Assembly: GCA_021778515.1 (NCBI GenBank)
Contig: JAJYCJ010000001.1
Location: forward strand, 4,396-68,395
DNA: 64,000 nucleotides
DNA from: Acidobacteriota bacterium
GTDB taxonomy: Bacteria; Acidobacteriota; UBA4820; DSQY01
Reading direction: 5' to 3'
Shown: positions 38,605 through 54,409 of the stretch, one piece after another
Layout of the letters: each line of letters begins with the position of its first letter
Numbering within the stretch: position 1 is the first letter of the stretch
The notes under the pieces: model-generated
What the model saw: the letters and a program-made list of their open reading frames with translations, nothing else
Told to the model about the DNA's origin: nothing
Databases searched by the model: none
Translations under genes and position numbers: made by a program

Positions 38605-38659
38605 CGCCTGCCCTCCTCTGGATCCAGGCAGGGCCGGGGATTCTGGCGGCGGTTCTTCC

Positions 38660-39652
38660 TCAGTGGGCCAGGAGCGGGTCGAGACCGCAGGCGAGCATGA
38701 CGGCGAGGGCGAAGAGGTTGATCTGCATGAAGGCCCGACCGGGCGAGAAGCCCTCCCCTGCCGCGAGCAGTTTGCGCGAGGCCCACGCCAGCCAGGCGGC
38801 GCAGAGCACGAGCGCCACGACCGATGGGAGGGAGCGGACAACGCCGAAGAGGGGCAGGAGCAGGCTCGAAAAGGCGGTGGCCATCATCCAGACGCACGTG
38901 ATCCGCGAGAGCTGCCCCGGAGAAAACACCTGGGTGAGGGTGGGAAAGCCGGCCTGCTCGTACTGATCGCCGTACTTGAGCAACAGGAGCCAGAAGTGCG
39001 GGATCTGCCAGACGAAAAAGAAGAAGCTGAGCGCCAACAGACCGCCGTCCTCCAGGCGCCCGCCGCCGGCCACCCAGCCGATGGCCGGGGGGATGGCTCC
39101 GATGATGGAACCCGGAACCACCGCGAAGGCGGTGACCCTCTTGAGGGGCGTGTAGAGAAGATTGTAGGAGGCCACGGCGGCGGCTCCCAGGAGCGCGCAG
39201 AGAGCGCCGACTCCCAGCAGCAGGACCGCCTCGCCCCCCACCAGCAGAAGGAGCGAGACCAGGAGTCCGCCCGAGGGCGTGATCAGGCCCGCCGGGATGG
39301 GCCTCCTCCGCGTGCGCGCCATGAGTGCGTCGGTCTTCCACTCCTGCACCTCGTTGAGCGCCCCCGCTCCGCAGGAGAGCAGGAGGGTCCCCGCGAGGGC
39401 CACGAACATCTCCCAGTGGAGGGAGCGGGCCGCCAGCAGGTACCCCGTGGCCGCCGAGAAGGTGGAGAGGACGGCGATGTTGAACTTGGTCAGGACGCGG
39501 AGCAGGCCAAGGGAGCCCCGGACGTCCCGCGTCCGGCTGCTGGGCTGGCCCAGGCCCATCGCATCCGAAGGCCGAGCGGCATCCCTTCTGGGCGCCGCGG
39601 GAAGCGCCACCTCCCGGCTCCAGATCGCTGCCCTCGTCCTCACGTCGGCCAT
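38660..39652 (-). CDS. ctaB: Protoheme IX farnesyltransferase (heme O synthase), UbiA family
   Basis: Nine TM helices; UbiA Asp-rich region (NEVQEWKTDALMARTRRRP); RBS GGGAG before ATG; directly downstream of cox subunit II. Confidence 0.85.
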   Translation of the reverse strand: MADVRTRAAIWSREVALPAAPRRDAARPSDAMGLGQPSSRTRDVRGSLGLLRVLTKFNIAVLSTFSAATGYLLAARSLHWEMFVALAGTLLLSCGAGALNEVQEWKTDALMARTRRRPIPAGLITPSGGLLVSLLLLVGGEAVLLLGVGALCALLGAAAVASYNLLYTPLKRVTAFAVVPGSIIGAIPPAIGWVAGGGRLEDGGLLALSFFFFVWQIPHFWLLLLKYGDQYEQAGFPTLTQVFSPGQLSRITCVWMMATAFSSLLLPLFGVVRSLPSVVALVLCAAWLAWASRKLLAAGEGFSPGRAFMQINLFALAVMLACGLDPLLAH

Positions 39653-39663
39653 CGTGGCTCCCG

Positions 39664-40572
39664 CTACTTCAGGGTCTTGATATAGGCGATGAGGTCGTTC
39701 ACGTCCTGGGGCGTCAGGTCTTTCTGCACCGGCATGACGCTGGCGGGATAGCTCTGCACGATATCCGCGTTGGGGTCGAGGATGGACCGCTTCAGGTAGT
39801 CGTCATCGGCCTTGACGGTGCGCGTCTTGCCGTTGGTTGTCACGGTCACCTCGGAGTCGTAGAGCCCCTTCCAGGTGGGGCCCACGATCCTGATCCCGGT
39901 GATGCTGTGGCAACCGATGCAGCCCTTGGTCTTGTACAGGAGCTCGCCGTGGGCCGGACCTGTGGCGGCCTCCTGGGTGCTGTACCACTCCTTGAACTTG
40001 TCACCCGGCATGATGACCACGTTGGCCATCATCAGGGGGTGCCCCTGGCCGCAGTAGCTGGAACAGAGCAGGTCGTAGGTGCCCAGCTCGGTGGGGTCGA
40101 ACCAGGCGAAGTTGTGCTTGCCCGGCACCACGTCCTCCTTCACGCCGAAGGCCGGAATGAAGAAGCCGTGGATCACGTCCAGCGAGTGGAGGTCGCAGCG
40201 CACGGGGGTGTCGATGGGGAGCCGCAGCTCGCTGCTCACCTTGCCGTTCGGGTACTTGAACGACCAGGACCACTGACGCCCCGTCACCTCCACCTGCATG
40301 GCGTCGCGGGGCACCTCCCGCATCTGCTCCCAGCGCGTCCATCCGAAGTAGAACATGGAGAGGAACAGGAGGGTGGGGATGATGGTCCAGGTGGCCTCCA
40401 GGGCCACGTTGCCGTGGATGTCCTTGGGCTTGGGGTTCCTGCTCCGGCTGTAGCGGACGACGAAATAGATCATCGTCGCCGTGATGCCCACCAGGAAAAG
40501 GGCGGAGAGAGCTACGATGTAGATGAAGACGTGAGTGACGCTCTCGGTCAGGCTCGTGCTGGCTGGATTCAT
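39664..40572 (-). CDS. ctaC: Cytochrome c oxidase subunit II with C-terminal cytochrome c domain (caa3-type)
   Basis: Two N-terminal TMs; QWSWSFKYP; CuA site CSSYCGQGHPLM; C-terminal CIGCH heme c motif. Confidence 0.9.
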   Translation of the reverse strand: MNPASTSLTESVTHVFIYIVALSALFLVGITATMIYFVVRYSRSRNPKPKDIHGNVALEATWTIIPTLLFLSMFYFGWTRWEQMREVPRDAMQVEVTGRQWSWSFKYPNGKVSSELRLPIDTPVRCDLHSLDVIHGFFIPAFGVKEDVVPGKHNFAWFDPTELGTYDLLCSSYCGQGHPLMMANVVIMPGDKFKEWYSTQEAATGPAHGELLYKTKGCIGCHSITGIRIVGPTWKGLYDSEVTVTTNGKTRTVKADDDYLKRSILDPNADIVQSYPASVMPVQKDLTPQDVNDLIAYIKTLK

Positions 40573-40578
40573 GGACCG

Positions 40579-40884
40579 CTACCTCAAAGCCACGTCGAGA
40601 AAGGTCAGTCCGAGGAAGATGATGATGATGCACAGCGTCACCATCAGCATGATCCTGAAGAGGGTCTTCTCGTACTTCAGGTGCATGAAGAAGAAGACCA
40701 CGAGAGCCGCCTTGAGCGGGCTGATGATGAAGGCCGCCAAGGAGTTCCATCGCCCCCCGCCCATGTGGAGCAGGGAGATGGAGGAGAGCAGGAGCGTGAG
40801 CCCCACCAGGGCCGCCCACACCAGGGTGTAGGTGGTGTAGCTGACGACGTGGATCTCTTCGGTCGCTTCGTGAGCCACGGCCAT
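40579..40884 (-). CDS. Cytochrome c oxidase subunit IV (bacterial caa3-type small subunit)
   Basis: 101 aa, three predicted TM helices, positioned between subunits III and II. Confidence 0.7.
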   Translation of the reverse strand: MAVAHEATEEIHVVSYTTYTLVWAALVGLTLLLSSISLLHMGGGRWNSLAAFIISPLKAALVVFFFMHLKYEKTLFRIMLMVTLCIIIIFLGLTFLDVALR

Positions 40885-40890
40885 CCCCCC

Positions 40891-41526
40891 TTACGCCGCC
40901 AAATAGAAGAGCGGAAGCAGGAAGATCCAGATGATGTCCACGAGGTGCCAGTAAAGCGCGGCGTTCTCCAGGAAGACGAAGTGCTCCTGGGTGACCTTTC
41001 CGCGCGCCATCAGAATGAGCGCGGCGGTGAGCACGGCGATGCCGGCGATGACGTGCAGGCCGTGCAGTCCCGTCATGACATAGTAGAGCGAGAAGAAGAG
41101 CTGTTCCCCCGGCTTGCCCTGGAGCAGATGGGAATGCGGGAAGTAGCCTTGGCGGATGTGGCCGCTCCACTCCACGGCCTTGACAATCATGAAGGCCACG
41201 CCGGTCAGAATGGTCGTCCCCACGAGCCCCATGGCCAGCTTCCTTCTGCCCCGCTGGAGGGCCGTGATGGAGCTGGCCACGGCGAAGCTGCCCGTGAGCA
41301 GGACCAGCGTGTTGGCCACCCCCAGGATGGCGTCCATGTGGCTGCCGCCCGCGCTGAAGGCTCGCGGATGATCGGCCCTGTACATGGCGTACAGGACGAA
41401 CAGCCCGCCGAAGAGCATGCACTCCGAGAGGAGGAAGAGCCACATGCCGAGCTTGGCGCCCTCGTAGTCCCTGTGTTCCTCGTGGGCGTGTTCGGCCCGC
41501 CCCGCTTCCGCAGCCACGTCGCTCAT
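40891..41526 (-). CDS. ctaE: Cytochrome c oxidase subunit III
   Basis: 211 aa; conserved subunit III helices (GMWLFLLSECMLFGGLF...HGLHVIAG...LYWHLVD). Confidence 0.85.
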   Translation of the reverse strand: MSDVAAEAGRAEHAHEEHRDYEGAKLGMWLFLLSECMLFGGLFVLYAMYRADHPRAFSAGGSHMDAILGVANTLVLLTGSFAVASSITALQRGRRKLAMGLVGTTILTGVAFMIVKAVEWSGHIRQGYFPHSHLLQGKPGEQLFFSLYYVMTGLHGLHVIAGIAVLTAALILMARGKVTQEHFVFLENAALYWHLVDIIWIFLLPLFYLAA

Positions 41527-43154
41527 GATGCGAACGCTCCTTCGAAGTCATAGGCCTTTTCGGGGATCGTGGGGGGTTCCAGGAAGTTCTCGGTGGGCGG
41601 AGGCGAGGGGATCTGCCATTCGAGCGTCACGCCGCCCCACGGGTTGTCGCCGGCCTTTTCGCCCTTGAACACGGACACGATCAGGTTGGTGAAGACCACC
41701 AGGATACCCGCGATCATGATCCAGGAGCCCACCGTGGCGATCACCTGGGGCGTCTGAAACCGCGGGAGGTAGAAGGCATAGCGGCGGGGCATTCCCATGA
41801 CGCCGAGCACGAACATGGTGAAGTAGAGGAGGTTGAAGCCCGTGAACAGGAGGGCCCAGCCGATGTACGCCGCGCTCCGGTTGTACATCCGGCCGAACAT
41901 CTTGGGCAGCCAGTAGTGCAGGGCGCCGAAAAAGGCGAAGGCCGCCCCGCCGAAGATCACGTAATGGAAGTGGGCCACCACGAAGTAGGTATCGTGGAGC
42001 ATGACGTTCAAGGCCAGGGCGCCGAGAATCAACCCGGTGAGGCCGCCCACGGAAAAGAGAAAGATGAAGCTCAGGGCGTAGAGCATGGGCGGTTCGAGCG
42101 CGATGGAGCCCTTGTAGAGCGTCGCCGTCCAGTTGAAGACCTTGATGGCGCTGGGCACGGCGACCAGGAAGGTGAGGAGCGAGAAGACCGTGGCCGCCGC
42201 GTCGCTGAGGCCCGAGGTGAACATGTGGTGGGCCCAGACCAGGGAGCCCAGGAGCGCGATGCCCATGGAGGACCACACGATGGCGCCGTAGCCGAAGATG
42301 GTCCTGTGCGCGAAGGTGGGGATCATCTCCGAGATGAGGCCCATGGCGGGCAGGATCATGATGTAGACAGCGGGGTGGGAGTACATCCAGAACAGGTGCT
42401 GGTAGAGGAGCGGGTCGCCTCCCATGGCCGGGTTGAAGATCCCCACGTGAAAGATCCTCTCCACGAAGATCAGCAGCATGGTGATGCCGAGGACCGGCGT
42501 AGCCAGGACCTGCACCCACGAGGTGGCGTAGAGCGCCCACGGGAAGAGGGGCATCTTGAACCAGCCCATGCCCGGCGCCCGCATCCTGTGCATGGTCGTG
42601 ATGAAGTTGATTCCCGTGAGGATCGAGGAGAACCCCAGCACGAAGACGCCGAAGACCGCCATGGGGATGTCGGCGTGCGTCCTCAGGCTGTAGGGGGCGT
42701 AGAAGGTCCAGCCCGTGTCCGGCAGGCCGCTCCCGAAGAGGGAGGCGAGGGCGATGACGGCCCCGGTCACGTAGAGCCACCAGGAGAGCAGGTTGAGCCT
42801 CGGGAAGGCCACGTCCTTGGCGCCGATCATGATGGGCATGAAGAAGTTGCCCAGGGATCCGGGGACGGCCGGAATGATGAAGAGGAAGATCATGATCACG
42901 CCGTGCAGCGTGAACAGGGCGTTGTAGTAGTCCGCGTTCTTGAAGAGCTCGCCGTGGGGCGAGAGCATCTGCAAGCGCATGAGGAAGCCCAGCGACATCC
43001 CCACGAAGAAGAAGAACAGCGTGGAGACCAGGTAGAGGATTCCGATCCGCTTGTGGTCGGTGGAAAAGATCCAGCCGAAGATGCCGCTGAACCGGCCGTG
43101 ATCCTCAAGGTAGCTCGCCGCGCCCGCGCGCGGCGGCGCTTCGGAAGTCGTCAT
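41523..43154 (-). CDS. ctaD: Cytochrome c oxidase subunit I
   Basis: 543 aa from MTTSEAPP; heme/CuB ligand motifs (WFFGHPEVY-type region HPAVYIMILPAMG, HHMFTSG, VAHFHYV); 4-nt overlap with subunit III; the ORF finder fused it with SCO1-antisense sequence. Confidence 0.9.
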   Translation of the reverse strand: MTTSEAPPRAGAASYLEDHGRFSGIFGWIFSTDHKRIGILYLVSTLFFFFVGMSLGFLMRLQMLSPHGELFKNADYYNALFTLHGVIMIFLFIIPAVPGSLGNFFMPIMIGAKDVAFPRLNLLSWWLYVTGAVIALASLFGSGLPDTGWTFYAPYSLRTHADIPMAVFGVFVLGFSSILTGINFITTMHRMRAPGMGWFKMPLFPWALYATSWVQVLATPVLGITMLLIFVERIFHVGIFNPAMGGDPLLYQHLFWMYSHPAVYIMILPAMGLISEMIPTFAHRTIFGYGAIVWSSMGIALLGSLVWAHHMFTSGLSDAAATVFSLLTFLVAVPSAIKVFNWTATLYKGSIALEPPMLYALSFIFLFSVGGLTGLILGALALNVMLHDTYFVVAHFHYVIFGGAAFAFFGALHYWLPKMFGRMYNRSAAYIGWALLFTGFNLLYFTMFVLGVMGMPRRYAFYLPRFQTPQVIATVGSWIMIAGILVVFTNLIVSVFKGEKAGDNPWGGVTLEWQIPSPPPTENFLEPPTIPEKAYDFEGAFAS

Positions 43155-43156
43155 GT

Positions 43157-43990
43157 TCAGGACCTCGCCTCTCCATGCTTGGCCTTGCGGTTGGGGTTCG
43201 TGAACACCAGGAACGCCACGAAAGCGAGCGCTGACAAGATGACCGCCACGCCCGAGAGGGCCATGACCCTCGAAACGAGCACGCTGCCCTTGGGCCGGAT
43301 GCTGAAGCAGGAGAGGAGCTCGCCCACGATCCTGCCGCCCGTCTTCTCCTTGGCCGCGTCGGCGAGGGCCATCTGGAGGGCCGAGGGCACGTAACTGACG
43401 CCGTAGAGGTACTGGACCACCTTGCCCTTCGGGCTGAGCACGATGAGGGTGGCGGGGTGGATGTACATGTCCTCGTCCTTCTGGTAGCTGAAGCCCACCG
43501 CGTCGGTGACCTTGTCGATGTCGGCCTTGTCGCCGGAGAGGAAGAGCCAGTCCTGCGGCTGGATGGGCCTTTTGACGAGGGCCATGTAGTTGCGCTTCTT
43601 GTCCGCCAGGATCTGCGGGGTGTCCGTGGGGTCGAAGCTGATGGAGATGATCTGGTAGTCCTTGCCGGGATCGAGGGGCATCCGGTTCACAACGCCCGCC
43701 ACCCCCTCCAGCAGGCGCGGGCATATGCCGGCGCACCGAGAGTAGAAGAGGGCCAGGACCGTGGGCTTGGTCATGACCTGCCCGAGGGTGACCTCGCGGC
43801 CCTGCGAATCCGTGAACTTGGCGTCCAGGGGAACCTGGGCGCCCAGCTTCTCGGTCACGCCCTCGACGGTGATCTTGCCGGGGGTCTGGGCCATGACCGC
43901 GGCCGCCATCATGAGCCCGAGGCCCGCCGTCCATATCACCCGCAAGGCACCTCGGCCCGAACGCACCAATTTCCGTTCTTCTCTCTTCAT
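43157..43990 (-). CDS. SCO1/SenC family copper chaperone
   Basis: N-terminal TM, thioredoxin-like domain with CxxxC (CAGICP) and the conserved His region; immediately upstream of cox subunit I. Confidence 0.85.
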   Translation of the reverse strand: MKREERKLVRSGRGALRVIWTAGLGLMMAAAVMAQTPGKITVEGVTEKLGAQVPLDAKFTDSQGREVTLGQVMTKPTVLALFYSRCAGICPRLLEGVAGVVNRMPLDPGKDYQIISISFDPTDTPQILADKKRNYMALVKRPIQPQDWLFLSGDKADIDKVTDAVGFSYQKDEDMYIHPATLIVLSPKGKVVQYLYGVSYVPSALQMALADAAKEKTGGRIVGELLSCFSIRPKGSVLVSRVMALSGVAVILSALAFVAFLVFTNPNRKAKHGEARS

Positions 43991-44261
43991 GGTCCCAAAT
44001 CACCCAGGAATCACGCGTACGTCTCGTATATTTGGGGGACGGGCCGCCGCCGCCGGCGCCTCTTCGGGAAGGTCCGTTCTTCCCGCCCTGCCGTCCGATT
44101 CAACTCCCCGCGCCTGCGCTTGCGGGCCCGTTCCACTCCCTCTCCAATGCTTCAGGAGCGGCTCCCTCACCCTCCGCGGGGCTCGCATGGATAGTGAAAC
44201 AGCCGATGAACGAGATTATTCGCCCGCAGGGGGACAAAGGCGATCGCGCGCAGCCCCGCCC

Positions 44262-45194
44262 TCAAGTCCCCTCCCGGCGGGCCTGCGGCGGGGACCCCGC
44301 TCCCGTCGGGCCGGCCAGGCCCGCCAGCTCTTGCTGGAAGAGCTTCCACTGCCGGGCATCGAGCCCCGCCACGCCCGGGTCCAGGCCGTTGTTCGGCGGG
44401 TCCGCCACGGCCACGCGAACGAGGGCATCCAGATCGCTCTGCCAATCGGGGACCTGGGCCAGGACCCGCGCCGTGCGGCCCGGGTCCTTCACGAGCCGCC
44501 TGACGAGCCGCGCCCCCTGGCTGTCGTCTCCGGGAGGAGGCATGGGGATCGCGGGGGGCCGCTTGTAGTCGGCCGCCATGTGCTTCATGACCGTCGGGAC
44601 CGCCACCTTGCTGGGCGTCTCGCTCCCCTTCGAGAGGTTGAACTCCTTGTCCAGCGCCGCGATCTGCTGCGGCGTATCCTGGCCGTGGTCGAAGTGGCCG
44701 AGGGACTGCACGTAGTGGGCGAGAGCGAATCGGTCCATGGGCGTCAGGGTGTCGTAGGAGGCCATGCCCGTCCCCGCCACCCCTTTCGAGAGGGTCCGGT
44801 AGATGTCGGCGATGGTGTAGCCGTTGGTCCAGCCGTTGGGGCTCGTAAAATTGCGCGGCTTCGGATTGAAGGCCACGGCGGCCGGCCCGTTTCCCTGGCC
44901 AGCCGGGCCGTGGCAGGCCACGCAGTTGGCCTGGAAGAGCTTCTCTCCCTGGGCCACCGCCTTGGGCGTGGATTGGAAAGCGTCGTCCAGATCTACCCCA
45001 GGCTTCTGGTTGCCTTTCACGGTGGGAAAGATCGTGGGGTCCGAGGGGACCGCCGTGGCCTCCCTCCACTCCTTCTGCTGCTTGGAGATGAGGCCGCCCT
45101 TGGGCAGGAGCATGAAACCGAGGATCGCATAGAGGCCGGCCAGCACGAGGACCAGCGCTACCACGGAAAGGGCCTGCTGCTGCTTCTTGTTCAT
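44262..45194 (-). CDS. Membrane-anchored monoheme cytochrome c with about 130-aa C-terminal extension
   Basis: Start at MNKKQQQALSVVALVLVLAGLYAILG (TM anchor); class I cytochrome c domain with CVACHG; 16 nt downstream of actF. Confidence 0.75.
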   Translation of the reverse strand: MNKKQQQALSVVALVLVLAGLYAILGFMLLPKGGLISKQQKEWREATAVPSDPTIFPTVKGNQKPGVDLDDAFQSTPKAVAQGEKLFQANCVACHGPAGQGNGPAAVAFNPKPRNFTSPNGWTNGYTIADIYRTLSKGVAGTGMASYDTLTPMDRFALAHYVQSLGHFDHGQDTPQQIAALDKEFNLSKGSETPSKVAVPTVMKHMAADYKRPPAIPMPPPGDDSQGARLVRRLVKDPGRTARVLAQVPDWQSDLDALVRVAVADPPNNGLDPGVAGLDARQWKLFQQELAGLAGPTGAGSPPQARREGT

Positions 45195-45210
45195 CGGTCG
45201 CGCCTTTCGC

Positions 45211-46362
45211 TCAAAGCCTGAATTCCAGGCCCTCTTGCAGGAAGGGGTCGCCCACCGGTGTGTCCTCGCCCTTGGCCATGGCTGCACGGGCGGCGAGCAG
45301 GCCCAGCGGCAGGAAGAGGAGGGCGAAGGAGAGCTCGGGCCACCCCAGCCGGACCTTCGCACCCACCGCCGGGAAGATGAGCCAGTAGAGGTCGATCAGC
45401 ATGAAGGCCAGAACCCAGAGGGAGACCCACCGCAGGCGCTTGGGATTGGTCTTGGCCTTCCGGCTCACGAGAGCGAGGAACGGGACGAAGAAGTGGCCGA
45501 TGCCCAGGATGAGCGACAGCGCCAGCCAGCCCCCGGTGGTCCGCTGCTTGAACCAGAAGACCTCCTCCGGCATGTCCCCGTACCACATGAGCATGTACTG
45601 GGCGAAGGCGATGTAGCCCCAGAAGACCGTGAAGGCGAAGAGAAAGCCGCCCAGGTTGTAGAGATGGTCCTTCGTGATCCCGGGCAGTCGTCCGCGATTG
45701 TAAAGGTACAGCGTGCCCAGCGTGGTGGCGGCGAGTCCCGACAGGAAGGTCCCCGCGAAGAGGTAGACGCCGAAGATGTCGCTGTACCAGACGGGCTCCA
45801 GGCTGGAGATCCAGTCGAAGGCCACCGTGGTCAGCGTGAGGGCGAAGATGGCCAACACCAGGGGCGCGTAGCGCCGGAGGCGAACGGTGATCATGGGGTC
45901 CCTGCTTCGGTCCTGCTCGAAGGAGCGCTTCACCACGAGCCGGTAGGCGAGGAACCAGAGAGCCACGCAGGCCAGGGTCCGAATGATGAAAAACGGCGTA
46001 TTGAGCCATGCCGACTTGAGGACCACCGCCGGCACCGACGCGCCCTCGGGCCTCGCCCACGGATAGAGCACGGGCAGGCACAGGAGGGCAGCCACCACCA
46101 GGGGCGTGACCCACAGGGCCAGGCTGGAGAGGCGTTCGGGCACGCGCCTGAGAGGCACGCTCCAGACGGACTGGACCTGGTGCTCCAGGGCCACGATGAA
46201 GAGGCAGCCCAGGCCCACGGCGATGCCGAAGACCATCCAGACGAGCCAGTTGGCCCAGAAGCGCGCCGGCCCCTCGACGAAGTAGGTGGCCGCCGCTCCC
46301 GACAGGCCCACGGCGGAAAGAAGGAGGAGGTTTCTGACCATGGTCCCGCTTCCGCTGCTCAT
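45211..46362 (-). CDS. actF: Alternative Complex III subunit ActF (NrfD-like polytopic membrane subunit)
   Basis: 383 aa, about 10 TM helices, homologous in architecture to ActC; ATGA overlap with the actDE stop; the ORF finder fused it with upstream sequence. Confidence 0.8.
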   Translation of the reverse strand: MSSGSGTMVRNLLLLSAVGLSGAAATYFVEGPARFWANWLVWMVFGIAVGLGCLFIVALEHQVQSVWSVPLRRVPERLSSLALWVTPLVVAALLCLPVLYPWARPEGASVPAVVLKSAWLNTPFFIIRTLACVALWFLAYRLVVKRSFEQDRSRDPMITVRLRRYAPLVLAIFALTLTTVAFDWISSLEPVWYSDIFGVYLFAGTFLSGLAATTLGTLYLYNRGRLPGITKDHLYNLGGFLFAFTVFWGYIAFAQYMLMWYGDMPEEVFWFKQRTTGGWLALSLILGIGHFFVPFLALVSRKAKTNPKRLRWVSLWVLAFMLIDLYWLIFPAVGAKVRLGWPELSFALLFLPLGLLAARAAMAKGEDTPVGDPFLQEGLEFRL

Positions 46363-47489
46363 TGCACGTCCTCCGGCTCTGCGTGCTGGGAGCGCTGCAA
46401 GGCCCTGACGTAATCCACGATGGCCCACCGGTCGTTGGCCGACAGGTCCGCGGCGTAGCTGGGCATGGCTCCCTTTCCCGCGGCAATGACGTAGTAGATG
46501 TAGCCGTCGGGCGCCTCGCGGTAGGTGGAGGCCTGGAGGTCGGCCGGCTTGGCCGTGTAGGCCGAGGTCAGCCACGGCTTGCCCGTCCCCAGGCGGTCGT
46601 GGCAGACGGCGCAGTGGTTGTTGAACAGGTCGCGCCCGGCCTGAAGGACGGCCGGCGTGACCGGGAGGGGGTTGATCAGCTCCTTCCCCGCCTCCTCCGG
46701 GCTCTTGGCCAGCAGCGGCATGTACCCTCGGGCCACGGTCCCGACGGGGGGGAGCTGCATGCCGTGGCCGTCCGCGAAGAAGGAGTCGGCCTTCTGCGCG
46801 TCGAGCCTGGGCTGCACCTCCATGTGGACCATGGGCGGAAGGGTCGGGTAGATCTTGATGGCCCAGGCGGTGCCGAAGCCCGTCACCACGCAGGCGGCGG
46901 TGATGCCGGAGAGGGTCTTGAGCCACCAGCCCAGGCCGGGAGGCGTCGAATCGGGAGCCGCCAGCACCTCCACCTCGGAGCCGCCCGTCTCCAGGAGCGC
47001 CGCGCTCGCCGCCTCCACGTCCAGCACCCCTGCCTCCGGCATGATGAGGAGGCCGAACCTGTCCTTGGTGGTCCCGCGGATGGCCTTGGAACCGAGGATG
47101 GGACTGCCGAAGAAGGGCAGCTTGTTGAAGAGGAAGAGCATGGCCAGCCCGGCGGTGAAGGTGGCGAAGAGCACCGTCACCTCGAACATGACCGGGACGA
47201 AGGCCTGCCAGGAGTTGAAGGGCTTGCCGCCGATCACCAGCGGGTAGTCCACGGCGCTCGTCCACCATTCGAAGAGGAAGCCGCTCACGGCCCCCAGAAC
47301 GGCCATGATGAAGACCAGCGTGCCCAGCCGCGATTTCTTCAGGCCCAGCGCCGCTTCCATCCCGTGGACGGGGAAAGGCGTGTAGGCCTCCAGGCTGGAG
47401 AAACCCCTGGCCTTGATCCCGGGGATCGCATCCAGGAGGGCCTGCGCGGTGGGATAGAGGGCGAGGACTCCGAAGGGCGCCTCAGGCAT
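46359..47489 (-). CDS. Alternative Complex III ActD-ActE fusion (DUF3341 membrane subunit plus monoheme cytochrome c)
   Basis: N-terminal ActD-like domain with TM helices (about 170 aa), and a C-terminal class I cytochrome c with CAVCHD...MPSY; a single 376-aa ORF. Confidence 0.8.
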   Translation of the reverse strand: MPEAPFGVLALYPTAQALLDAIPGIKARGFSSLEAYTPFPVHGMEAALGLKKSRLGTLVFIMAVLGAVSGFLFEWWTSAVDYPLVIGGKPFNSWQAFVPVMFEVTVLFATFTAGLAMLFLFNKLPFFGSPILGSKAIRGTTKDRFGLLIMPEAGVLDVEAASAALLETGGSEVEVLAAPDSTPPGLGWWLKTLSGITAACVVTGFGTAWAIKIYPTLPPMVHMEVQPRLDAQKADSFFADGHGMQLPPVGTVARGYMPLLAKSPEEAGKELINPLPVTPAVLQAGRDLFNNHCAVCHDRLGTGKPWLTSAYTAKPADLQASTYREAPDGYIYYVIAAGKGAMPSYAADLSANDRWAIVDYVRALQRSQHAEPEDVQ

Positions 47490-48870
47490 GGCCCACCTCC
47501 GCTGCGTGTTCGGGCTGGGCGTGGGGCACGTCCATCTTCACCTCGCTCGTGGCGATGACCGGTAGCACGCGTGCGAACAGCAGCACCAGCGTGAAGAAGA
47601 GACCGAAGGAGCCCAGCAGGATTCCGAAGTCCACCAGGGTGGGGATGAACACCCCCCACGACGAGGGCAGGAAGCTGCGGTGGAGTGAGAGGACGATGAT
47701 GGTGTACCGCTCGAACCACATGCCCACCGTGACGCACGACGAGACGAACAACATCACGGGGAAGGAGCGCCTGAACCGGGGCACCCAGAGGAGCTGGGGA
47801 ATGATCACGTTGCAGGTGATGGTGATCCATCCCGCCCACCACTGGTCGCCGAAGACGTAGTTGTAGAAGGTGTACCGGATGTAGGTGTTGGAGCTGTACC
47901 AGGCCGTGAAGCCCTCCATCAGGTAGGAGTAGCCCATCAGGCAGGACATGGTGAGGATCATCTTGTTCATCATGTCCATGTGGGTCATGGTGATGAGGTT
48001 CTCCATGTGCATGGTCTTGCGCACCACGGAGAGCACCAGCACCACCATGGCGAAGCCCGCGAAGATGGCCCCCGCCACGAAGTAGGGCGGGAAGATGGTC
48101 ATGTGCCAGCCCGGCACCAGGGAGACGGCGAAGTCGAAGGAGACCACGCTGTGCACGCTCAGCACGAGGCCGGTGGCGAGGCCCGCCAGCAGGAGGTAGG
48201 CCCTCTCGTAGTGGAGCCAATTCCTCGCGGAGCCCACCCAACCGAGGCTGAGGACCCGATAGATGCCCTTCCGGAGCCTGCTCGTGGTCCGCTCGCGCAT
48301 GGAGGCCAGATCGGGCATGAGCCCCAGGTACCAGAAGAGCAGCGACACGCTGAAGTAGGTGCTGACGGCGAAGACGTCCCAGACCAGCGGGGAGCGGAAG
48401 TTGATCCAGAGGTCCCGCACGTTGGGATAGGGAAACAGCCAGTAGCCGAACCAGGGGCGGCCCACGTGGATCAGGGGGAAGATGCCCGCGCAGCAGAGGG
48501 CGAAGATGGTCATGGCCTCGGCCGCCCTGGATATGGCGTTGCGCCAGCGCTTCCTGAACATGAAGAGGATGGCTGAGATGAGGGTCCCGGCGTGGCCGAT
48601 CCCCACCCAGAAGACGAAGTTGATGATGGGGAAGCCCCATGCCACGGGGACGTTGTTGCCCAGCGTCCCGATGCCCTCGTAAACCAGATAGCCGATGCAC
48701 CCGAATCCCATGAGCATGATGAGGCTCGTGATGGTGATGGCGATGAACCATCCCCGGCCCGGCTTGGTCTCCGGCCACGCCAGCACCTGATCATCGAGGC
48801 TGCCGACGGTGACCGGCCCCTCCATCAGCGGCTGGTGGCGGATCGCTTCGGGAAGCAGAGCCTCAGGCAT
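47482..48870 (-). CDS. actC: Alternative Complex III subunit ActC (NrfD/PsrC-like quinol-interacting membrane subunit)
   Basis: 462 aa, about 10 TM helices, typical ActC N-terminus; 8-nt overlap with the actB stop. Confidence 0.85.
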   Translation of the reverse strand: MPEALLPEAIRHQPLMEGPVTVGSLDDQVLAWPETKPGRGWFIAITITSLIMLMGFGCIGYLVYEGIGTLGNNVPVAWGFPIINFVFWVGIGHAGTLISAILFMFRKRWRNAISRAAEAMTIFALCCAGIFPLIHVGRPWFGYWLFPYPNVRDLWINFRSPLVWDVFAVSTYFSVSLLFWYLGLMPDLASMRERTTSRLRKGIYRVLSLGWVGSARNWLHYERAYLLLAGLATGLVLSVHSVVSFDFAVSLVPGWHMTIFPPYFVAGAIFAGFAMVVLVLSVVRKTMHMENLITMTHMDMMNKMILTMSCLMGYSYLMEGFTAWYSSNTYIRYTFYNYVFGDQWWAGWITITCNVIIPQLLWVPRFRRSFPVMLFVSSCVTVGMWFERYTIIVLSLHRSFLPSSWGVFIPTLVDFGILLGSFGLFFTLVLLFARVLPVIATSEVKMDVPHAQPEHAAEVGHA

Positions 48871-51747
48871 TCTTGTCCTCCCCTGGGACGGCGGGGTTCT
48901 TGAGCTCGGCCATGTAGGTGATGGCCGGCCGCGTGCCCAGCTCCTCCAGAACCTTGAAGCGGCGGTCGCTGCGGGAGAGGTGGGCCACCCGGCTGTCCTT
49001 GTCGTTGAGGTCGCCGAAGACGATGGCGCTCGCGGGACAGGCCGCCTGGCAGGCCGGCACGATCTCCCCGTCGCGGAGCGGGCGGTGCTCGTCCTGGGCC
49101 ACGCGCCTGCCGTTGACGATGCGCTGCACGCAGAAGGTGCACTTCTCCATGACGCCCCGCGGCCTCACCGTGACCTCGGGATTGAAGGCCAGGTCCAGCG
49201 GGTCCTTGATGAAGCTCGTGTAGTCCAGGAAGTTGAAGCGGCGCACCTTGTAGGGGCAGTTGTTGGAGCAGTACCTCGTGCCGACGCAGCGGTTGTACAC
49301 CATCTGGTTCAGGCCGTCGGGGCTGTGGGTCGTGGCCGCCACGGGACAGACGTTCTCGCAGGGGGCGTCGTCGCACTGCTGGCAGAGCATGGGCTGGTGG
49401 ACCACCTTCGGGTTGCCCGCGTCCCCTTCGTAGTACTTGTCGATCCGGATCCACTGCATCTCCCGCCCCCTCGACACCTGCTCGGGGCCCACCACGGGGA
49501 TGTTGTTCTCGGACTGGCAGGCGATGACGCAGCCGTTGCACCCCACGCAAGCCGACATGTCGATGGCCATGCCCCACTTCTCTCCCGTGTAGGGGTGGCC
49601 CTTGTAGAGGGTCACCTCCTGCTCGCCCTGGGGGTGTGCCGCCTCCTTCTTGTACTCGTCGAGGTCCCACAGCCTGACGATGTCGCGGCCCTCCAGGGAG
49701 AAGTGTTTTTGAGTCCTGCACAGCTCGCGATGGCCTCTGGTCGGGATCACGGCCGCATCCGTGCGAAGGAACGGGGAGCCCCCGGAGGCCATGAGGGGGA
49801 AGGCGTTGACGCCGATTCCCGATGCGACCCTGCCCTCCGTGCGCCCGTACCCCAGGGGAAGGGTGAGGACTCCTTGGGCCTGGCCCGGCTGGACCAGCGC
49901 GGGTACCTCCAGGCTCTTGCCGCCCACCTCGATGCGCAGCAGATCTCCGTCCTGCACGCTCAGCCTCTGGGCATCGGCCGCCGAGATCAGCGCGGCGCAG
50001 CCCCAGGTGAGGTCGGTGACGGGTTCGGGCAGCTCCTGGAGCCAGCCGATGTTGGCGTAGCGTCCATCCCACAGCTTCAGGTCGCGCACGAGCACGAGGT
50101 CCATGCCTTGGCCCGCGGGAACCTTCGCCCTGTCAATCGCTTCGACCAGGGCCGCGCTCTTGGGCTGGCGGGGCGCCCTGGGCTCCACATCCAGCCTGAG
50201 CACGCCATCGTGCACCGCCCCGTTCCAGTAGGCCTCGAAGGGCACTGGCGAGGCGGCCGGGTAGACCTCCCTCCGCCAGCGCCCCATGACGTAGAGCCTG
50301 TAGTCCGTCTCCACGGGTGCGCCTATGGCCTTGGCCCACCGCAGCAGGACCTCCTCCGCCTGACGGGTCTGGTAGAGCGGGCGGATGAGGGGCTGCTGGA
50401 GGCTCAGCAGATCCGTTCCCGCCTCGAAGTCCCCCCAGGACTCCATCCAGTGATTCACGGGAAGGACCACCTGGCAGGTCTTGGCCGTCTCGTCTTCCCG
50501 GAGGCCCAGCCGCACCCTGAGGGGCACGCGGGAGAGACCCTGGACGAAGGAGCCCGCGTCGGGCTGGTCGTAGGCCGGGTTCGCACCCCATACAATGGCC
50601 GCCGCGTACACACCGGAGGCGAGGTCCTTGGCGAGTACGGCCATGTCCTCAGGGGCCGCGAGCTGCACGGGCGCAGGCGCGAAGCCGGCGTCCACCGTGC
50701 TGCCCTCGGCGCCCAGCATGGCGTTGAGCAGCGAGACGGCGGCGTGCGCCTCGTAGGGAAGGCTCGGCCCGGCTGCCACGAGGGCCGCAGGACCCGCCTT
50801 GGCGAGGTCGTCCACCATGACCCCGAGGAGATGGAGGTCCAGCCCCTGCGCCCTGGCCACCTCCTTGAGCGCGAAGGGCGCCAGGGTGCTCGACGCCAAT
50901 CCGTCCGGAAGGGCCAGATGGTGGCGCTCGTGGAGCTCCAGCGCCAGGGCGAAAGCCACCGCGGCCGCCGCGGAGGGACGCATGGGAAGGCGGTGGTCCG
51001 CCTTCGTACCCGTGAGCGTCAGCGTGCCCTCCAAGGCGTAGAGCCGGTTCATCGGCTCCGTCGGCGAGGAGAGCCGCCGGTTCGCGGCGAAGCCCCGGAT
51101 GGCCGGGACGGCCTGGTCCATCGTGCCCAGCAGGTCCGCCTCCAGCGCCACGATCACCTTGGCCTTTTCCAGGTGGTAACGCGGGCAGAGGGCCTCGCCG
51201 AACACGGCCTGGGCCGCCGCGCGCCCCGCATGGTCCGCCGCGGGCTCCCACGCGACGTGCCGAAGCGTGGGCAGCACCGATTTCAGGTCGTTCAGGACCG
51301 CCCGCTGGCTCGGGGAGATCACCGCGGGCGTCACCAGGAGCAAGGCCTTGCCGCCCGAGGCGGCCGCCTTCAGGGCCGCAACCACTCGGCTGTCCACCGC
51401 GGCCCAGTCGGCGGGGTGTCCGTCCATCACGGGCTGCCTGAGCCGGTCCGGGTCGTAGAGGCCGATCACCTCCGCCATGATCCGCGGCGAGGTCTTGCCC
51501 TCGAAGAGGGGGTGCTCGTCGTTGCCGTCGATGTGGATGGGCCTGCCCTCGCGGGTCTTGACCAGCACGCCGTAGGGCACGAGCCCCTCCTGGACGGTGC
51601 TGGCGTAGTAGTTGGCCACGCCGGGGATCACCTCCGAAGGCTTCTTGGTGTAGGGAACGATGGTGTCGCCTTCGGGCGCTTGACAGGCGGCCGTGGCGGC
51701 GAGGGCCGCCGAGGCCCCCATGAGGCCCAGGAAGCGCCGCCTGGCCA
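48863..51747 (-). CDS. actB: Alternative Complex III subunit ActB (fused molybdopterin-oxidoreductase-like B1 and 4Fe-4S ferredoxin B2 domains), Tat-exported
   Basis: Tat motif MARRRFLGLMGASAALAATAA with RBS AGGGAG 5 nt upstream of ATG 51747; C-terminal Cys clusters (CVGCNGCVIACQSENN, CQQCDDAPC, CPYKVRRFN); the ORF finder offers an alternative GTG start at 51889 that adds 47 aa. Confidence 0.85.
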
Positions 51748-51881
51748 TGGGCTCCCTGGGCGGCTCCATGGGAGTGAGACCGTTCGGGCTCTCACTGCCA
51801 TCCCATCCGCCCGGGGTCACCGCCGCGGCCTTTGGCGGGAGGACCTTCCAGAAGGCCCTCCGCTTTTCGTCCCTCTCCTCG

Positions 51882-52091
51882 TTAGCCACGGCGTTTCACC
51901 GAGTGGAGCGGGCCGGCCACCCTTCTCGATGGCAGCGGGCCCCTCTGAGCGGCTTCCTCGCCGGCACCGGCCGGTGCGGCCGGGCGGGGGTACTCCCCAC
52001 CCCGCCCCCAGAACCTGCGCCCCAGGGCGAGGTTCCCCAGGAAGGCCGCGAGCATGCCCGCCAGGACCTTTCGACGACTCGTACCGGTCAT
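51882..52091 (-). CDS. Small hypothetical membrane/Tat-like protein (69 aa) between actA and actB
   Basis: ATG 33 nt after the actA stop with RBS GGAGAG; MTGTSRRKVLAGMLAAFLGNLALG hydrophobic N-terminus with an SRRxxL Tat-like motif; high GC3; the upstream part of the listed ORF 51882..52712 is the alternate frame of actA. Confidence 0.3.
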   Translation of the reverse strand: MTGTSRRKVLAGMLAAFLGNLALGRRFWGRGGEYPRPAAPAGAGEEAAQRGPLPSRRVAGPLHSVKRRG

Positions 52092-52123
52092 GGACACTCT
52101 CCTCTGCATCCTTGCCTCGGCTC

Positions 52124-52687
52124 TCATCGGTGACAGGCGTTGCAGTTGGTGGGTCCGGCCTGGATCGGCGAGCCCGGCGGGAGATAGCGCCTCGGGTCCC
52201 GGTGGCAGGCCAGGCAGTGGCCCATCCGCATGTTCATGACGCGCCTCACCCGGTCCATGTCCTGCACGTCGCCGTGGCAGCTCTGGCATGCGATGCCTGA
52301 GTTCACGTGCGGCCGGTGGTCGAAATAGACGTGGTCGGGGAGCTCGTAGATCCGCTTCCAGAGCAGCGGCTTGTTCGATTCGTAGATGGCCGTGAGCTCT
52401 TTGATGTACACGTTGTTGGTCTTGGCATAGCGATGACAGTTCATGCAGGTCTGGACCGCCGGAACGGTGGCGTGCCGAGAGCGCGTCGCGTTCGTATGGC
52501 AGTAGAGGCAGGGGATCCTCATCTGTCCGGCGTGAAGGCGGTGAGAGAAGGGGATGGGCTGTTTCGGGGCATAGCCAAGGACGAATCGGTCCGGCTCCGC
52601 GACCCATCCCACCGTGATCATGGTGATGAGGACGGCCGTTGCGCCGATGGGAATCGCGAACCGGAACAGACGGTCTAGCGGATGCAT
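52124..52687 (-). CDS. actA: Alternative Complex III subunit ActA (pentaheme cytochrome c)
   Basis: Five CxxCH motifs (CLYCH, CMNCH, CQSCH, CLACH, CNACH); N-terminal TM; start at MHPLDRLF with RBS GGGAGGAGG. Confidence 0.85.
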   Translation of the reverse strand: MHPLDRLFRFAIPIGATAVLITMITVGWVAEPDRFVLGYAPKQPIPFSHRLHAGQMRIPCLYCHTNATRSRHATVPAVQTCMNCHRYAKTNNVYIKELTAIYESNKPLLWKRIYELPDHVYFDHRPHVNSGIACQSCHGDVQDMDRVRRVMNMRMGHCLACHRDPRRYLPPGSPIQAGPTNCNACHR

Positions 52688-52960
52688 AAACCTCCTCCCA
52701 ATGGGGCCGCACAATTCTCTCTGCCTGGTTCCATCACGGCCTACTATCCCACAAGACTATCGTGAAATGGAATGTGAACGTGCCTCATCCATCCAAATCC
52801 TCTCGTGTAACCGGGCCCCGTTTTCGATTATTCCCCGCCGCCGCGGCCGTCCGTGAGGGGCCGATAGGGCCACGCGGTCCGTCGGCCACGGCAAGAAGAA
52901 AGCGCGCCTCGCGCGCGGGGTGGCTCGGCGTGCGGCCTGAGCCGGCGCCGGGGCCCGTCG

Positions 52961-54256
52961 TTACGGATAGAGCCGGTAGAGCATGCGCGGATAGGGAATG
53001 GTCTCCCGGACGTGGTTCAGGCCACAGAGCCAGGCCACCGTCCGCTCGAGGCCGATTCCGAAACCGCCGTGCTTCACGGTTCCGTACCTGCGGATGTCCA
53101 GGTACCACTGGAAGGCCTCTACCGGGAGGCCGTGCTCCTGGATGCGCGAGAGGAGCAGGTCGTGGTCGTGGATGCGCTCCGAGCCGCCGACGATCTCGCC
53201 GTAGCCCTCCGGGGCGAGCACGTCCACGCAGAGGGCGAGGCTCGGGTCTTCGGGATCGGGCTCCATGTAGAAGGCCTTCACCGACGCCGGGTAGCGGTGG
53301 ACCATGATGGGCCGGTCGTACTGCTGGGTGAGGATGGTCTCGTCGTCGCCGCCGAAGTCGTCGCCGTACTTCAGGTCGCTGCCCAGCTCGTGGAGCTGCC
53401 GCACGGCGTCCTTGTACTGCACGCGAGGGAAGGGCTTCTGCACCTTCTCCAGCTTGCTTGTGTCCCGCTCCAGGATCTTCAACTCCTCGGGGCAGCGGTC
53501 CAGGATCCGCGAGACGACGCTGACGAGGAAGTCCTCCGAAAGGGCCATCACGTCGTCGAGGCCCGCGAAGGCCATCTCCGGTTCGAGCATCCAGAATTCC
53601 ATGAGGTGCCGGCGCGTCTTGCTCTTCTCGGCCCGGAAGGTGGGGCCGAAACAGTAGACCTTCCCCAGCGCCATGCAGGCGGGCTCGAGGTAGAGCTGGC
53701 CGGACTGGCTGAGGTAGGCCTTCTCTCCGAAGTAGTCGGTCTCGAAGAGCGTGGTCGTCCCCTCGCAGGCCGCCGGCGTCAGGATGGGGCTGTCGATGAG
53801 GGTGAAGCCGCTCTCGTAGAAGTAGTCCCGGAAGGCCTGTTCGATCTCGGAGCGCACCCGCAGGATGGCCACCTGCCGGGAGGAGCGCAGCCACAGGTGC
53901 CGGTTCTCCATGAGGAAGCCCGTGCCGTGCTCCTTCTTGCCGATGGGGTACTCCTCGGCCATGTGGTGCAGAACCAGGCCGGAGAGGGAGAGCTCCACCC
54001 CGCCTGGCGCCCGCTGGTCGATCCGCACCGTTCCCTCCACCGTGACGGAGGACTCCAGGGTCGCGCGGTCCATGAGCTCGAAGACCTCGGGCGGAACATC
54101 CCGGACGAAGGCCACGCACTGGAGGTAGCCCGAGCCGTCCCGCAGGATGAGGAACCGGACCTTGCCGGAGGAGCGCTTGTTGTAGACCCAGCCGTCGAGG
54201 GTCACCTTCTCCCCGTCGTGGGCCGCCAGTTCCTTCACGGTGAGCTTGTGCAGCAT
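52961..54256 (-). CDS. asnS: Class IIb aminoacyl-tRNA synthetase, asparagine--tRNA ligase type
   Basis: 431 aa; N-terminal OB anticodon-binding domain; class II motifs ([33 protein letters not shown]-terminus); start at [11 protein letters not shown] with RBS AGGAG; archaeal-type AspRS cannot be fully excluded. Confidence 0.8.
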
Positions 54257-54409
54257 GGGGGCATCTCCTGACCGAGGGCTGGAATTATAGACAATTCGGG
54301 GCTTCCGGGCAATAGGGGGCGGTCGAAATGGCGAAATCAGGGAACCGCGCCGGGCCCGGCCCACCATCCAGTCGCGGCTGCCTCTCGCCTCGCGCCACTC
54401 TTGCCCGGC

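Follow-up and report, generated by a model that had tools for sequence, protein, structure and literature searches.

ActD and ActE are subunits of ACIII, a respiratory quinol:cytochrome c oxidoreductase, and their fusion into one polypeptide is not new. It has been reported since 2012, when IALB_1390 of Ignavibacterium album was described as an ActD-ActE fusion (PMC3362086), followed in 2013 by MROS_0042 of Melioribacter roseus, with three TM helices and one CXXCH (PMC3534657). A study of 2017 found the "fused ActDE" protein of M. roseus by proteomics in aerobically grown cells (PMC5492636). A cytochrome oxidase is linked to the act cluster of M. roseus (PMC3362086, PMC3534657, PMC5492636). 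Such fusions are common in uncultured soil and sediment bacteria, and the fused form is a genuine but ordinary variant.

In contrast, all four solved ACIIIs come from organisms with a separate, lipid-anchored ActE, namely R. marinus (6F0K), F. johnsoniae (6BTM), R. castenholzii (6LOD), and C. aurantiacus (8K9E). An earlier note on the DNA studied here had stated that ActD and ActE of characterised ACIIIs are separate and that ActE is lipid-anchored. Both statements agree with the structures, in which D and E are separate chains, and with the literature on the anchor (PMC5928083, PMC7439408, PMC8552683). The termini of ActD are cytoplasmic, and ActE is periplasmic (PMC5928083, PMC7439408). The second TM helix of ActD contains a conserved glutamate, Glu122 in R. 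marinus, with 98% conservation (PMC5928083). In F. johnsoniae, electrons can reach the oxidase even without ActE (PMC8552683).

We analyzed a stretch of 64,000 nucleotides (the window) that contains a gene of this kind, here called actDE. Very probably it genuinely encodes a fused ActD-ActE of respiratory ACIII, with the halves joined by a third TM helix (TM3), and belongs to an operon actA-B-C-DE-F that runs into a caa3-type oxidase cluster. The features are listed in Table 1.

Table 1. Features of the actDE gene and of its surroundings, in window coordinates
Feature	Position	Strand	Details and evidence
actDE, fused ActD-ActE	46359..47489	-	376 aa, ATG start, stop codon in range; ORF list and translation, Pfam, PDB phmmer
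ActD module, residues 7-174	46968..47471	-	cytoplasmic beta-alpha-beta, TM1, periplasmic loop, TM2, cytoplasmic beta-alpha-beta (predicted); Pfam, AF2, Foldseek
TM helix 1, residues ~54-79	47253..47330	-	Kyte-Doolittle peak 2.29; AF2 helix 54-79
TM helix 2, residues ~94-123	47121..47210	-	Kyte-Doolittle peak 1.90; AF2 helix 94-123; contains E103 (codon 47181-47183)
TM helix 3, residues ~186-213	46851..46934	-	AF2 helix 186-213, pLDDT ~70-77; Kyte-Doolittle 1.5; in the place of the ActE lipoprotein signal peptide
ActE-specific N-terminal arm, residues 214-278	46656..46850	-	conserved P215, P219, M223, Q226, FFxDGxGMQ/GTVxRG; low AF2 confidence
Class I cytochrome c fold, residues 279-367	46389..46655	-	CAVCH 293-297 at 46599-46613; distal M342 at 46464-46466; Pfam, Foldseek
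actA, pentahaem cytochrome c (five CxxCH)	52124..52714	-	translation; nearest NCBIfam model QrcA, E 1.6e-24, below cutoff; syntenic in related loci
actB, molybdopterin-like and 4Fe-4S subunit	48863..51889	-	Pfam Fer4, Molydop_binding; translation; synteny
actC, NrfD/PsrC-like quinol-binding membrane subunit	47482..48870	-	PF03916, E 9e-26; synteny
actF, 383 aa	45211..46362	-	gene call on the identical ENA contig, translation, synteny
cytc2, extra membrane-anchored monohaem cytochrome c, 310 aa	44262..45194	-	Pfam Cytochrom_C
caa3-type oxidase block	39664..43990	-	SCO1 43157-43990, CoxI 41523-43154, CoxIII 40891-41526, CoxII with C-terminal cytochrome c domain 39664-40572; translations, SCO1 Pfam

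Gene context of actDE

Translation of the actDE frame revealed no stop or frameshift anywhere. The earlier note had claimed a 376-aa ORF combining ActD with an ActE-type monohaem cytochrome c; its coordinates hold exactly, and Pfam and phmmer matches cover both halves, on a minus strand that the note left unsaid. The sequence GGAGGTG precedes the ATG at a distance of 4 nt. An overlap of 8 nt joins the start of actDE to the stop of actC, and the stop of actDE overlaps the start of actF as ATGA.

The gene occupies the position typical of actD, between actC and actE/actF in an act operon. The order actABC-DE-F is conserved in the other loci of the main fused clade as far as their flanks extend, and actF was found directly downstream of actDE, or of actD/actE, in all loci compared. 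Its product shows 48-61% identity within the main clade and 27-43% in more distant loci. At the N-terminus of the actB product, RRRFLG...ATAAC represents a twin-arginine motif and a lipobox. The gene cytc2 comes next after actF in every main-clade locus with a flank past actF (n = 54), and the order SCO1-CoxI-CoxIII-CoxII is the same in main-clade loci. We can add to the known picture that the main fused clade keeps one conserved ten-gene ACIII-caa3 oxidase cluster, including an extra membrane-anchored cytochrome c.

This arrangement is similar to that described for Ignavibacteria, where one gene between actC and actF likewise encodes ActD with a single C-terminal CXXCH cytochrome. As with actDE, three TM helices are predicted for the M. 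roseus protein, actF is followed there by another gene for a monohaem cytochrome c, and the act cluster is linked to an oxidase. The likeness is judged from published descriptions, and the lineages differ, the host of actDE being most likely Acidobacteriota-like.

The ActD half

The N-terminal half matched PF11821 (ActD, formerly DUF3341) at residues 7-174 with E 8.6e-53 and 178.9 bits against a cutoff of 25.7, covering profile positions 2-169 of 170. A phmmer search of the PDB matched residues 6-177 to R. marinus ActD (6f0k_D) at E 2e-29. The AF2 model gives the secondary structure E5-12/H15-27/E33-36, H54-79, H94-123, and E145-149/H158-167/E171-177, that is, two predicted TM helices between N- and C-terminal beta-alpha-beta elements, as described for ActD (PMC5928083). 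The two helices would be crossing, and the beta-alpha-beta elements would together make up the small domain on the cytoplasmic side. The TM helices that the earlier note had seen in this half are thus two in number, by both hydropathy and model. In Foldseek searches with the AF2 model, the module matched four ActD chains, with 8k9e_D and 6lod_D on top.

Glu103 in TM2 is invariant in 29 homologues, and the surrounding stretch FEVTVL aligns with FELTIL of 6f0k_D. From the offset of this alignment, E103 probably corresponds to Glu122 of R. marinus ActD. Homology to ActD reaches the ActD C-terminus, where E174 is invariant.

The ActE half

Residues 209-375 matched R. marinus ActE (6f0k_E), also at E 2e-29, with the alignment starting at query residue 209 and ActE residue 26. 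Both separate R. marinus subunits are thereby recovered from one ORF, and the two halves also match the D and E chains of the three other solved ACIIIs. The similarity includes the N-terminal arm, whose motif M-x-V-Q-P-R...FF-x-D...GTV-x-RG is common to actDE and separate ActE ORFs.

The C-terminal domain was assigned by Cytochrome_CBB3 (PF13442, residues 282-361, E 4e-13) and Cytochrom_C (PF00034, residues 283-364, E 3e-8), both above their cutoffs. It contains the only CxxCH of the protein, CAVCH at residues 293-297, and MPSY at 342-345; 29 homologues all retain C293, C296, H297, M342, and P343, pointing to a putative His/Met haem ligation. The class I cytochrome c domain that the earlier note had recognized from CAVCHD and MPSY is hence borne out by the profiles and by its ligand residues. 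Foldseek matched this domain to 6f0k_E, 8k9e_E, 6lod_E, and 6btm_E, and the eight best PDB matches of the whole AF2 model were all ActD or ActE chains. Among NCBIfam models, neither an ActD nor an ActE model matched, and generic cytochrome c models matched only below threshold.

M. roseus has the order actDE, actF, and then a gene labelled actE (PMC3534657), and one may ask whether the fused cytochrome is an add-on and cytc2 the real ActE. The gene cytc2, syntenic in every main-clade locus with a flank past actF, encodes a monohaem cytochrome c with a membrane anchor. However, the match of its product to ActE reached only E 1e-5 and was confined to the generic cytochrome fold, and the product came closer to 6h5l_B (E 2e-21, its best PDB match), whereas the fused domain matched R. 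marinus ActE much more strongly and together with the ActE-specific arm. In the NJ tree of the ActE half, the fused domains group with bona fide ActE. On this relative similarity we rejected cytc2 as the true ActE, an assignment that we hold to be very improbable.

A predicted third TM helix at the junction

The segment between the halves had been described as a linker. It does join ActD and the cytochrome, but it is not passive, consisting of a conserved third TM helix and the ActE-specific arm. In total, actDE has three hydrophobic segments, one more than ActD's own, and a hydrophobic 19-mer was present between the halves in 69/69 near-complete fused representatives from the best 150 50%-cluster representatives. 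TM3 itself is only moderately hydrophobic. Across 90 fused sequences, the column counts are R/K191 (78), I196 (76), C200 (79), G204 (80), and K/R212 (85), such that I196, C200 (codon 46890-46892), and G204 form an i/i+4/i+8 stripe with K191 and K212 at the ends. The AF2 model has a mean pLDDT of 65.7 and a pTM of 0.39, with arm residues 215-260 unmodelled.

Free-standing ActE starts with a lipoprotein signal peptide carrying the lipobox Cys, whereas the cytochrome domain of actDE lies within the chain. At the equivalent place, actDE has a hydrophobic stretch of 20 residues between K191 and K212, with a Cys mid-way and hydrophobic residues after it; separate ActEs have an L-[AS]-[GA]-C lipobox at this position, followed by polar residues. 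With the termini of ActD in the cytoplasm and ActE in the periplasm, a fusion needs an odd number of extra TM helices. TM3 would lead the chain out of the cytoplasm, where its ActD part would end, into the periplasm, where the ActE arm and then the class I cytochrome c domain with its single haem site (C293/C296/H297, M342) would follow. Since TM3 occupies the signal peptide site of free-standing ActE, the lipid anchor would be replaced by a permanent protein anchor.

We also considered that actDE may be a polyprotein precursor, in which TM3 is an internal signal peptide cut by lipoprotein signal peptidase at a lipidated C200 or by signal peptidase I after A-W-A210, freeing a separate ActE and leaving ActD with the extra helix or part of it. 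The predicted N-in/C-out orientation of TM3 is that of a signal peptide, and I-T-A-A-C at C200 resembles A-T-A-A-C, the ActB lipobox of the same operon. C200 occurs in 79/90 fused sequences, with small residues at -1; the gap between R/K191 and C200, however, is 8 residues, compared with 11-15 in the free ActE signal peptides counted (L059, L060, L075), and in the close homologue P0029 the Cys is replaced by Ser. A lipobox is always present at this position in the free-standing ActEs, and some other fused ORFs display an intact-looking lipoprotein signal peptide with polar residues after it (LGGC|GT, LGAC|DN, NGAC|NT, MASC|DR), but in actDE 11 hydrophobic residues lie between C200 and K212, where polar ones come after real ActE lipoboxes. 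For signal peptidase I, A-W-A stands just before I211 in the window's actDE, yet position -3 is mostly Tyr or Phe across the family. The spacing of I196, C200, and G204 suits a helix-packing face, and AF2 gives one continuous helix. A precedent exists in FbcH of Bradyrhizobium, a cytochrome b-c1 precursor that is cleaved after translation. Given the short preceding hydrophobic region, the hydrophobic residues after the Cys, and the helical periodicity of conservation, we judged from sequence and model that internal lipobox cleavage at C200 is unlikely, and we give the precursor as a whole a small probability. An uncleaved, TM3-joined ActDE is the reading that we favour.

Distribution of the fusion

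All of the best 120 homologues, from 100% down to 55% identity, are fused and contain both PF11821 and PF13442 (120/120); they are 368-410 aa long, mostly 374-377. Both halves were matched in 114/150 of the best 50%-cluster representatives, and among 80 genomic loci spread over many phyla, 63 encode ActD and CxxCH in one uninterrupted ORF. The cluster at >=90% identity comprises 12 sequences from NCBI, ENA, JGI, and Logan, 11 of them at 376-378 aa; one relative at >=90% identity, from an Acidobacteriota MAG, is already annotated as ActD by NCBI. The closest species-representative genome is a Thermoanaerobaculia MAG (65% identity), and the nearest relatives of actDE belong to Thermoanaerobaculia and Gemmatimonadota. 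Gemmatimonadota appear to have the fused form as a rule, and so do many Acidobacteriota, Myxococcota, Binatia, Methylomirabilota, and Planctomycetota. Among cultured bacteria, Geothrix, Holophaga foetida (L018, L033), and Gemmatimonas belong to the fused clade.

These homologues bear on whether actDE is an assembly or sequencing artefact, with a lost stop codon or a frameshift joining actD and actE. Such a case does exist: in L080, an apparent fusion results from a frameshift near the end of actD, and homology to unfused sister loci is lost past KKYD; TCGGAGGTGCCCAGCTAGATG is the same DNA, read in another frame. In contrast, actDE keeps its ActD homology through the C-terminus, including the invariant E174. 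Its junction aligns unbroken with 89 other fused sequences, and, near codons 170-200, where the earlier note proposed to check for a stop or frameshift, the frame is open and the alignment of homologues is continuous over residues 170-215. The 11 near-identical members of its cluster come from several public sources, and the fused state persists through all of the best 120 matches. A separate actE in the window ORF would be left without a lipoprotein signal peptide or a start codon context. With L080 as a positive control for a fusion made by a frameshift, an artefactual origin of actDE is effectively refuted by conservation and scarcely conceivable.

Six Planctomycete loci (L057, L066, L069, L071, L073, and L076) also encode ActD, a hydrophobic helix, and ActE in a single ORF, at 33-36% identity to actDE. 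Their TM3 is without Cys and usually has Pro-Pro, whereas that of actDE has C200, and their ActE arm is of the Rhodothermales type (HxNPNMDFQPK), unlike actDE. The loci are without the extra cytochrome c gene, and their oxidase order, CoxII-CoxI-CoxIII, differs from that of the main clade. In NJ trees of both the ActD and the ActE half, they form a separate clade. Planctomycete ActDE is thus most likely an independent fusion, which suggests that the ActD-ActE fusion arose at least twice; as the half-trees have no bootstrap support and carry MAG taxon labels, this count of independent fusions is indicative.

Discussion

By analogy with R. marinus, the haem of actDE would be expected to extend the haem wire of ActA, on which ActE would dock beside haem V. 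From there, electrons may go either to CoxII, into its cytochrome c domain, or to the membrane-anchored product of cytc2. A complex of the fused type would have 24 TM helices rather than 23, with the two halves presumably incorporated 1:1. The earlier note held that a fusion fixes the stoichiometry; this is overstated and adds little, as purified R. castenholzii ACIII already has one copy per subunit (PMC7439408).

The actDE fusion leaves the current picture of how ACIII works unchanged. The fused form is apparently common in many phyla, and this suggests that, compared with the structural models, much of the environmental ACIII contains an additional TM helix and an ActE that is tethered covalently. 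For annotation, genes labelled just "ActD" or "mono/diheme cytochrome c family protein" are in fact ActDE, and the fused clade helps in the choice of a structural target. We speculate, tentatively and with rather low confidence, that the main clade is a distinct ACIII subtype, in which the 24th TM helix would put the I196-x3-C200-x3-G204 face into a new intramembrane contact (e.g., with the TM anchor of cytc2 or with the oxidase). The complex would also include a seventh subunit with haem, and the ten genes of the fixed ACIII-caa3 cluster would have spread jointly from phylum to phylum, making up a hard-wired supercomplex module. In a less likely variant, the conserved Cys would still be lipidated and the protein split at TM3 after membrane insertion.

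The D and E chains of the four solved ACIIIs are homologues of the actDE halves, with which they share the two ActD TM helices, the glutamate of TMH2, the beta-alpha-beta elements, the ActE arm, and the His/Met ligation. They differ in having separate D and E genes and a lipoprotein ActE, whereas in actDE a third TM helix joins the halves covalently; the ActE lipobox, Leu21-Cys24 in R. marinus and M30-T-A-C33 in R. castenholzii, is replaced by TM3. Two unrelated proteins offer further parallels. The CoxII-cytochrome c of caa3 oxidases, encoded in this very window, also tethers a cytochrome c to its membrane partner, and FbcH is a fusion of a membrane protein with its cytochrome c partner, although cleavage, established there, is a minority hypothesis for actDE. 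In CoxII-cytochrome c, FbcH, and actDE, a cytochrome c is tethered to its partner, and therefore a separate anchor or diffusion is unneeded.

A single reading frame encodes both subunits

At the place where the earlier note had put an ActD-ActE fusion, we found one real ORF, actDE. It has a Shine-Dalgarno sequence (GGAGGTG) 4 nt ahead of its start codon. Its beginning overlaps the actC stop by 8 nt, and the actDE stop and the ATG of actF overlap as ATGA. Many long ORFs also occur on the opposite strand or in other frames across 38000-56000 of the window, including one antisense to actDE and one of 1163 aa antisense to actB. These are spurious and not genes, with Arg/Gly/Pro-rich translations as expected of high-GC DNA.

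Features of the act cluster and its surroundings (window positions)
Feature	Position	Strand	Remark
actA, pentahaem	52124-52714	minus	first gene of the act cluster
actB	48863-51889	minus	N-terminus RRRFLGLMGASAALAATAAC
actC	47482-48870		NrfD-like
actDE	46359-47489	minus	ATG start, 376 aa
actF	45211-46362		
membrane-anchored monohaem cytochrome c	44262-45194	minus	310 aa, directly after actF
SCO1-CoxI-CoxIII-CoxII oxidase genes	39664-43990	minus	CoxII with cytochrome c domain
antisense ORF at actDE	46362-47558	plus	398 aa, spurious

As claimed, one polypeptide carries both domains. Residues 7-174 match ActD (PF11821, E 8.6e-53) and residues 282-364 the cytochrome c families PF13442 and PF00034, all above the curated Pfam cutoffs. 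The haem motif CAVCH (293-297) and the MPSY stretch (342-345), both named in that note, are present, and the ligands C293, C296, H297, and M342 are invariant.

We compared ActDE with all PDB chains by phmmer, and obtained two equally strong, non-overlapping matches to the separate subunits of Rhodothermus marinus ACIII, each at E 2e-29: 6f0k_D (ActD) aligns with residues 6-177 and 6f0k_E (ActE) with residues 209-375. The next matches were the D and E chains of the Roseiflexus, Chloroflexus, and Flavobacterium complexes. The 6f0k_E alignment begins about 70 residues ahead of the haem site and spans the ActE-specific N-terminal arm, whose motif M-x-V-Q-P-R … FF-x-D … GTV-x-RG also occurs in free-standing ActE genes of other genomes. 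Judged from this alignment, the ActE match is more than a generic cytochrome fold. An AlphaFold2 model of modest quality (29 homologues as input, mean pLDDT 65.7) recovered the published ActD layout of beta-alpha-beta, two long helices, and beta-alpha-beta (PMC5928083), in line with the TM helices proposed for this half, and its eight best PDB matches in Foldseek were all ActD or ActE chains. In the alignment, the stretch with the invariant E103 corresponds to the TMH2 (second helix) region of R. marinus ActD, which contains the conserved Glu122 (PMC5928083).

The fusion is genuine

In a collection of 5.8 billion proteins, 1739 reached E ≤ 1e-10, and both Pfam domains were present in 120/120 of the best matches (55-100% identity, 368-410 aa, mostly 374-377). 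At ≥90% identity, NCBI, ENA, JGI, and Logan together contribute 11 cluster members of 376-378 aa. An exhaustive HMMER search found 131 of 1.84 billion 50%-cluster representatives at E ≤ 1e-30, and 114 of the 150 best representatives matched both halves. We also re-read the reading frames of 80 loci, taken from one genome per species: 64 have one uninterrupted ORF with ActD and CxxCH, and in the other 16 a stop separates actD from actE.

Among the 64, one probably reflects a mistake in assembly or else a pseudo-fusion of very recent origin. This ORF, from an Acidobacteriota MAG (L080:6001-7140), nests among unfused relatives and results from a frameshift close to the C-terminus of ActD: past 'KKYD' it is no longer homologous to its sister loci, the DNA being the same but the frame different. 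The ActE lipoprotein signal peptide (LTSAC|RLDMHVQPR) is still complete in it, and it is a picture of what an erroneous fusion looks like. Unlike L080, the window ORF is homologous to ActD as far as the ActD C-terminus and aligns without a break across the junction. A frameshift-made fusion is in effect ruled out here.

A predicted third helix joins the two halves

The junction had been taken for a linker, but is not a passive one: residues 186-213 form a predicted helix in the AlphaFold2 model (TM3), with a 20-residue hydrophobic core between K191 and K212. Among 90 fused sequences, the most conserved positions were R/K191 (78), I196 (76), C200 (79), G204 (80), and K/R212 (85). Three of these, I196, C200, and G204, line up as a stripe with i, i+4, i+8 spacing, a pattern typical of a helix-packing face.

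In solved ACIII complexes, both ActD termini are cytoplasmic, and ActE is periplasmic and lipid-held through a lipobox cysteine (Leu21-Cys24 in R. marinus, M30-T-A-C33 in R. castenholzii) (PMC5928083, PMC7439408); joining D to E therefore needs exactly one extra membrane crossing. TM3 stands at the position of the ActE lipoprotein signal peptide, and 15/16 unfused loci have a classical lipobox followed by polar residues there. In our reading, the lipid anchor was exchanged for a third TM helix: the signal peptide would have been retained and lengthened into a permanent anchor, its Cys being a relic or a packing residue, and an ACIII with ActDE would have 24 TM helices, not 23.

ActB of the same operon may be Tat-exported and lipid-anchored, as suggested by an N-terminal twin-arginine motif followed by the lipobox ATAAC; its translation probably begins further downstream than the first GTG, at 51889. 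The C200 context, I-T-A-A-C, is close to this lipobox, and A-W-A directly precedes I211, so we considered whether ActDE is cleaved at TM3 after translation. We regard this as unlikely. The stretch between the basic residue and the Cys is just 8 residues long in the window's clade, versus 11-15 in those genuine ActE signal peptides that we counted; the Cys is followed by eleven hydrophobic residues and is replaced by Ser in one close homologue, and the -3 position of the putative signal peptidase I site is mostly Tyr or Phe across the family. Five distant fused ORFs (P0160, P0164, P0183, P0206, P0226; 30-38% identity) have an intact-looking lipoprotein signal peptide, with polar residues after it, between the halves. 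These could be polyproteins split by lipoprotein signal peptidase, or metagenome-assembly frameshift artefacts.

Gene order and origins of the fusion

The window order is actA, actB, actC, actDE, actF, monohaem cytochrome c, SCO1, CoxI, CoxIII, CoxII. By tblastn of the ten proteins against the 80 loci, this order was the same throughout the window's clade (Thermoanaerobaculia, Holophagae with Geothrix and Holophaga foetida, Myxococcota, Binatia, NC10/Methylomirabilota, Elusimicrobia, Riflebacteria) wherever the flank was long enough. The exception was Gemmatimonadota, which share it up to the extra cytochrome c; their flanks, as retrieved, gave no SCO1/Cox matches. All main-clade fused loci with flank past actF have the extra cytochrome c in synteny; it was not found in unfused or Planctomycete fused loci, whose oxidase order is SCO1-CoxII-CoxI-CoxIII instead of SCO1-CoxI-CoxIII-CoxII. 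Its C-terminal extension of about 140 aa had no Pfam match. We rejected it as the true ActE, since its best PDB match was 6h5l_B (E 2e-21) and 6f0k_E reached only E 1e-5.

Neighbor-joining trees of the ActD and ActE halves, built separately and without support values, agree with each other, and the window's clade is monophyletic in both. Apart from it, beside an unfused Krumholzibacteriota locus, group the fusions from Planctomycetes (L057, L066, L069, L071, L073, L076). They have a Rhodothermales-type arm and a different TM3, usually with Pro-Pro and no Cys, and 4/6 have an A-R-A motif just past this helix. Their separate place in both trees, their TM3, and their arm point to an independent event, so that the fusion appears, on these trees without support values, to have arisen at least twice.

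Comparison with described complexes

The window gene is a genuine fused ActD-ActE subunit of a known, widespread type. An NCBI protein at ≥90% identity is labeled 'quinol:electron acceptor oxidoreductase subunit ActD [Acidobacteriota bacterium]'. Our additions are modest: the conserved face of TM3, two or more independent origins of the fusion, and the close association of the main fused clade with a single ten-gene ACIII-caa3 cluster that includes an extra cytochrome c. That the fusion 'fixes the stoichiometry' adds little, because purified R. castenholzii ACIII already has one copy of each subunit (PMC7439408).

The novelty implied earlier does not hold, as the fusion is already described in the literature. 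In M. roseus, Mros0042 has three TM helices and one C-terminal CXXCH; after it come actF and a further gene for a monohaem cytochrome (PMC3534657, 2013), and the window has this same arrangement. A proteomic study of M. roseus grown aerobically detected the 'fused ActDE' protein (PMC5492636, 2017). The subunits are indeed separate in the characterized complexes: no solved ACIII structure contains the fusion.
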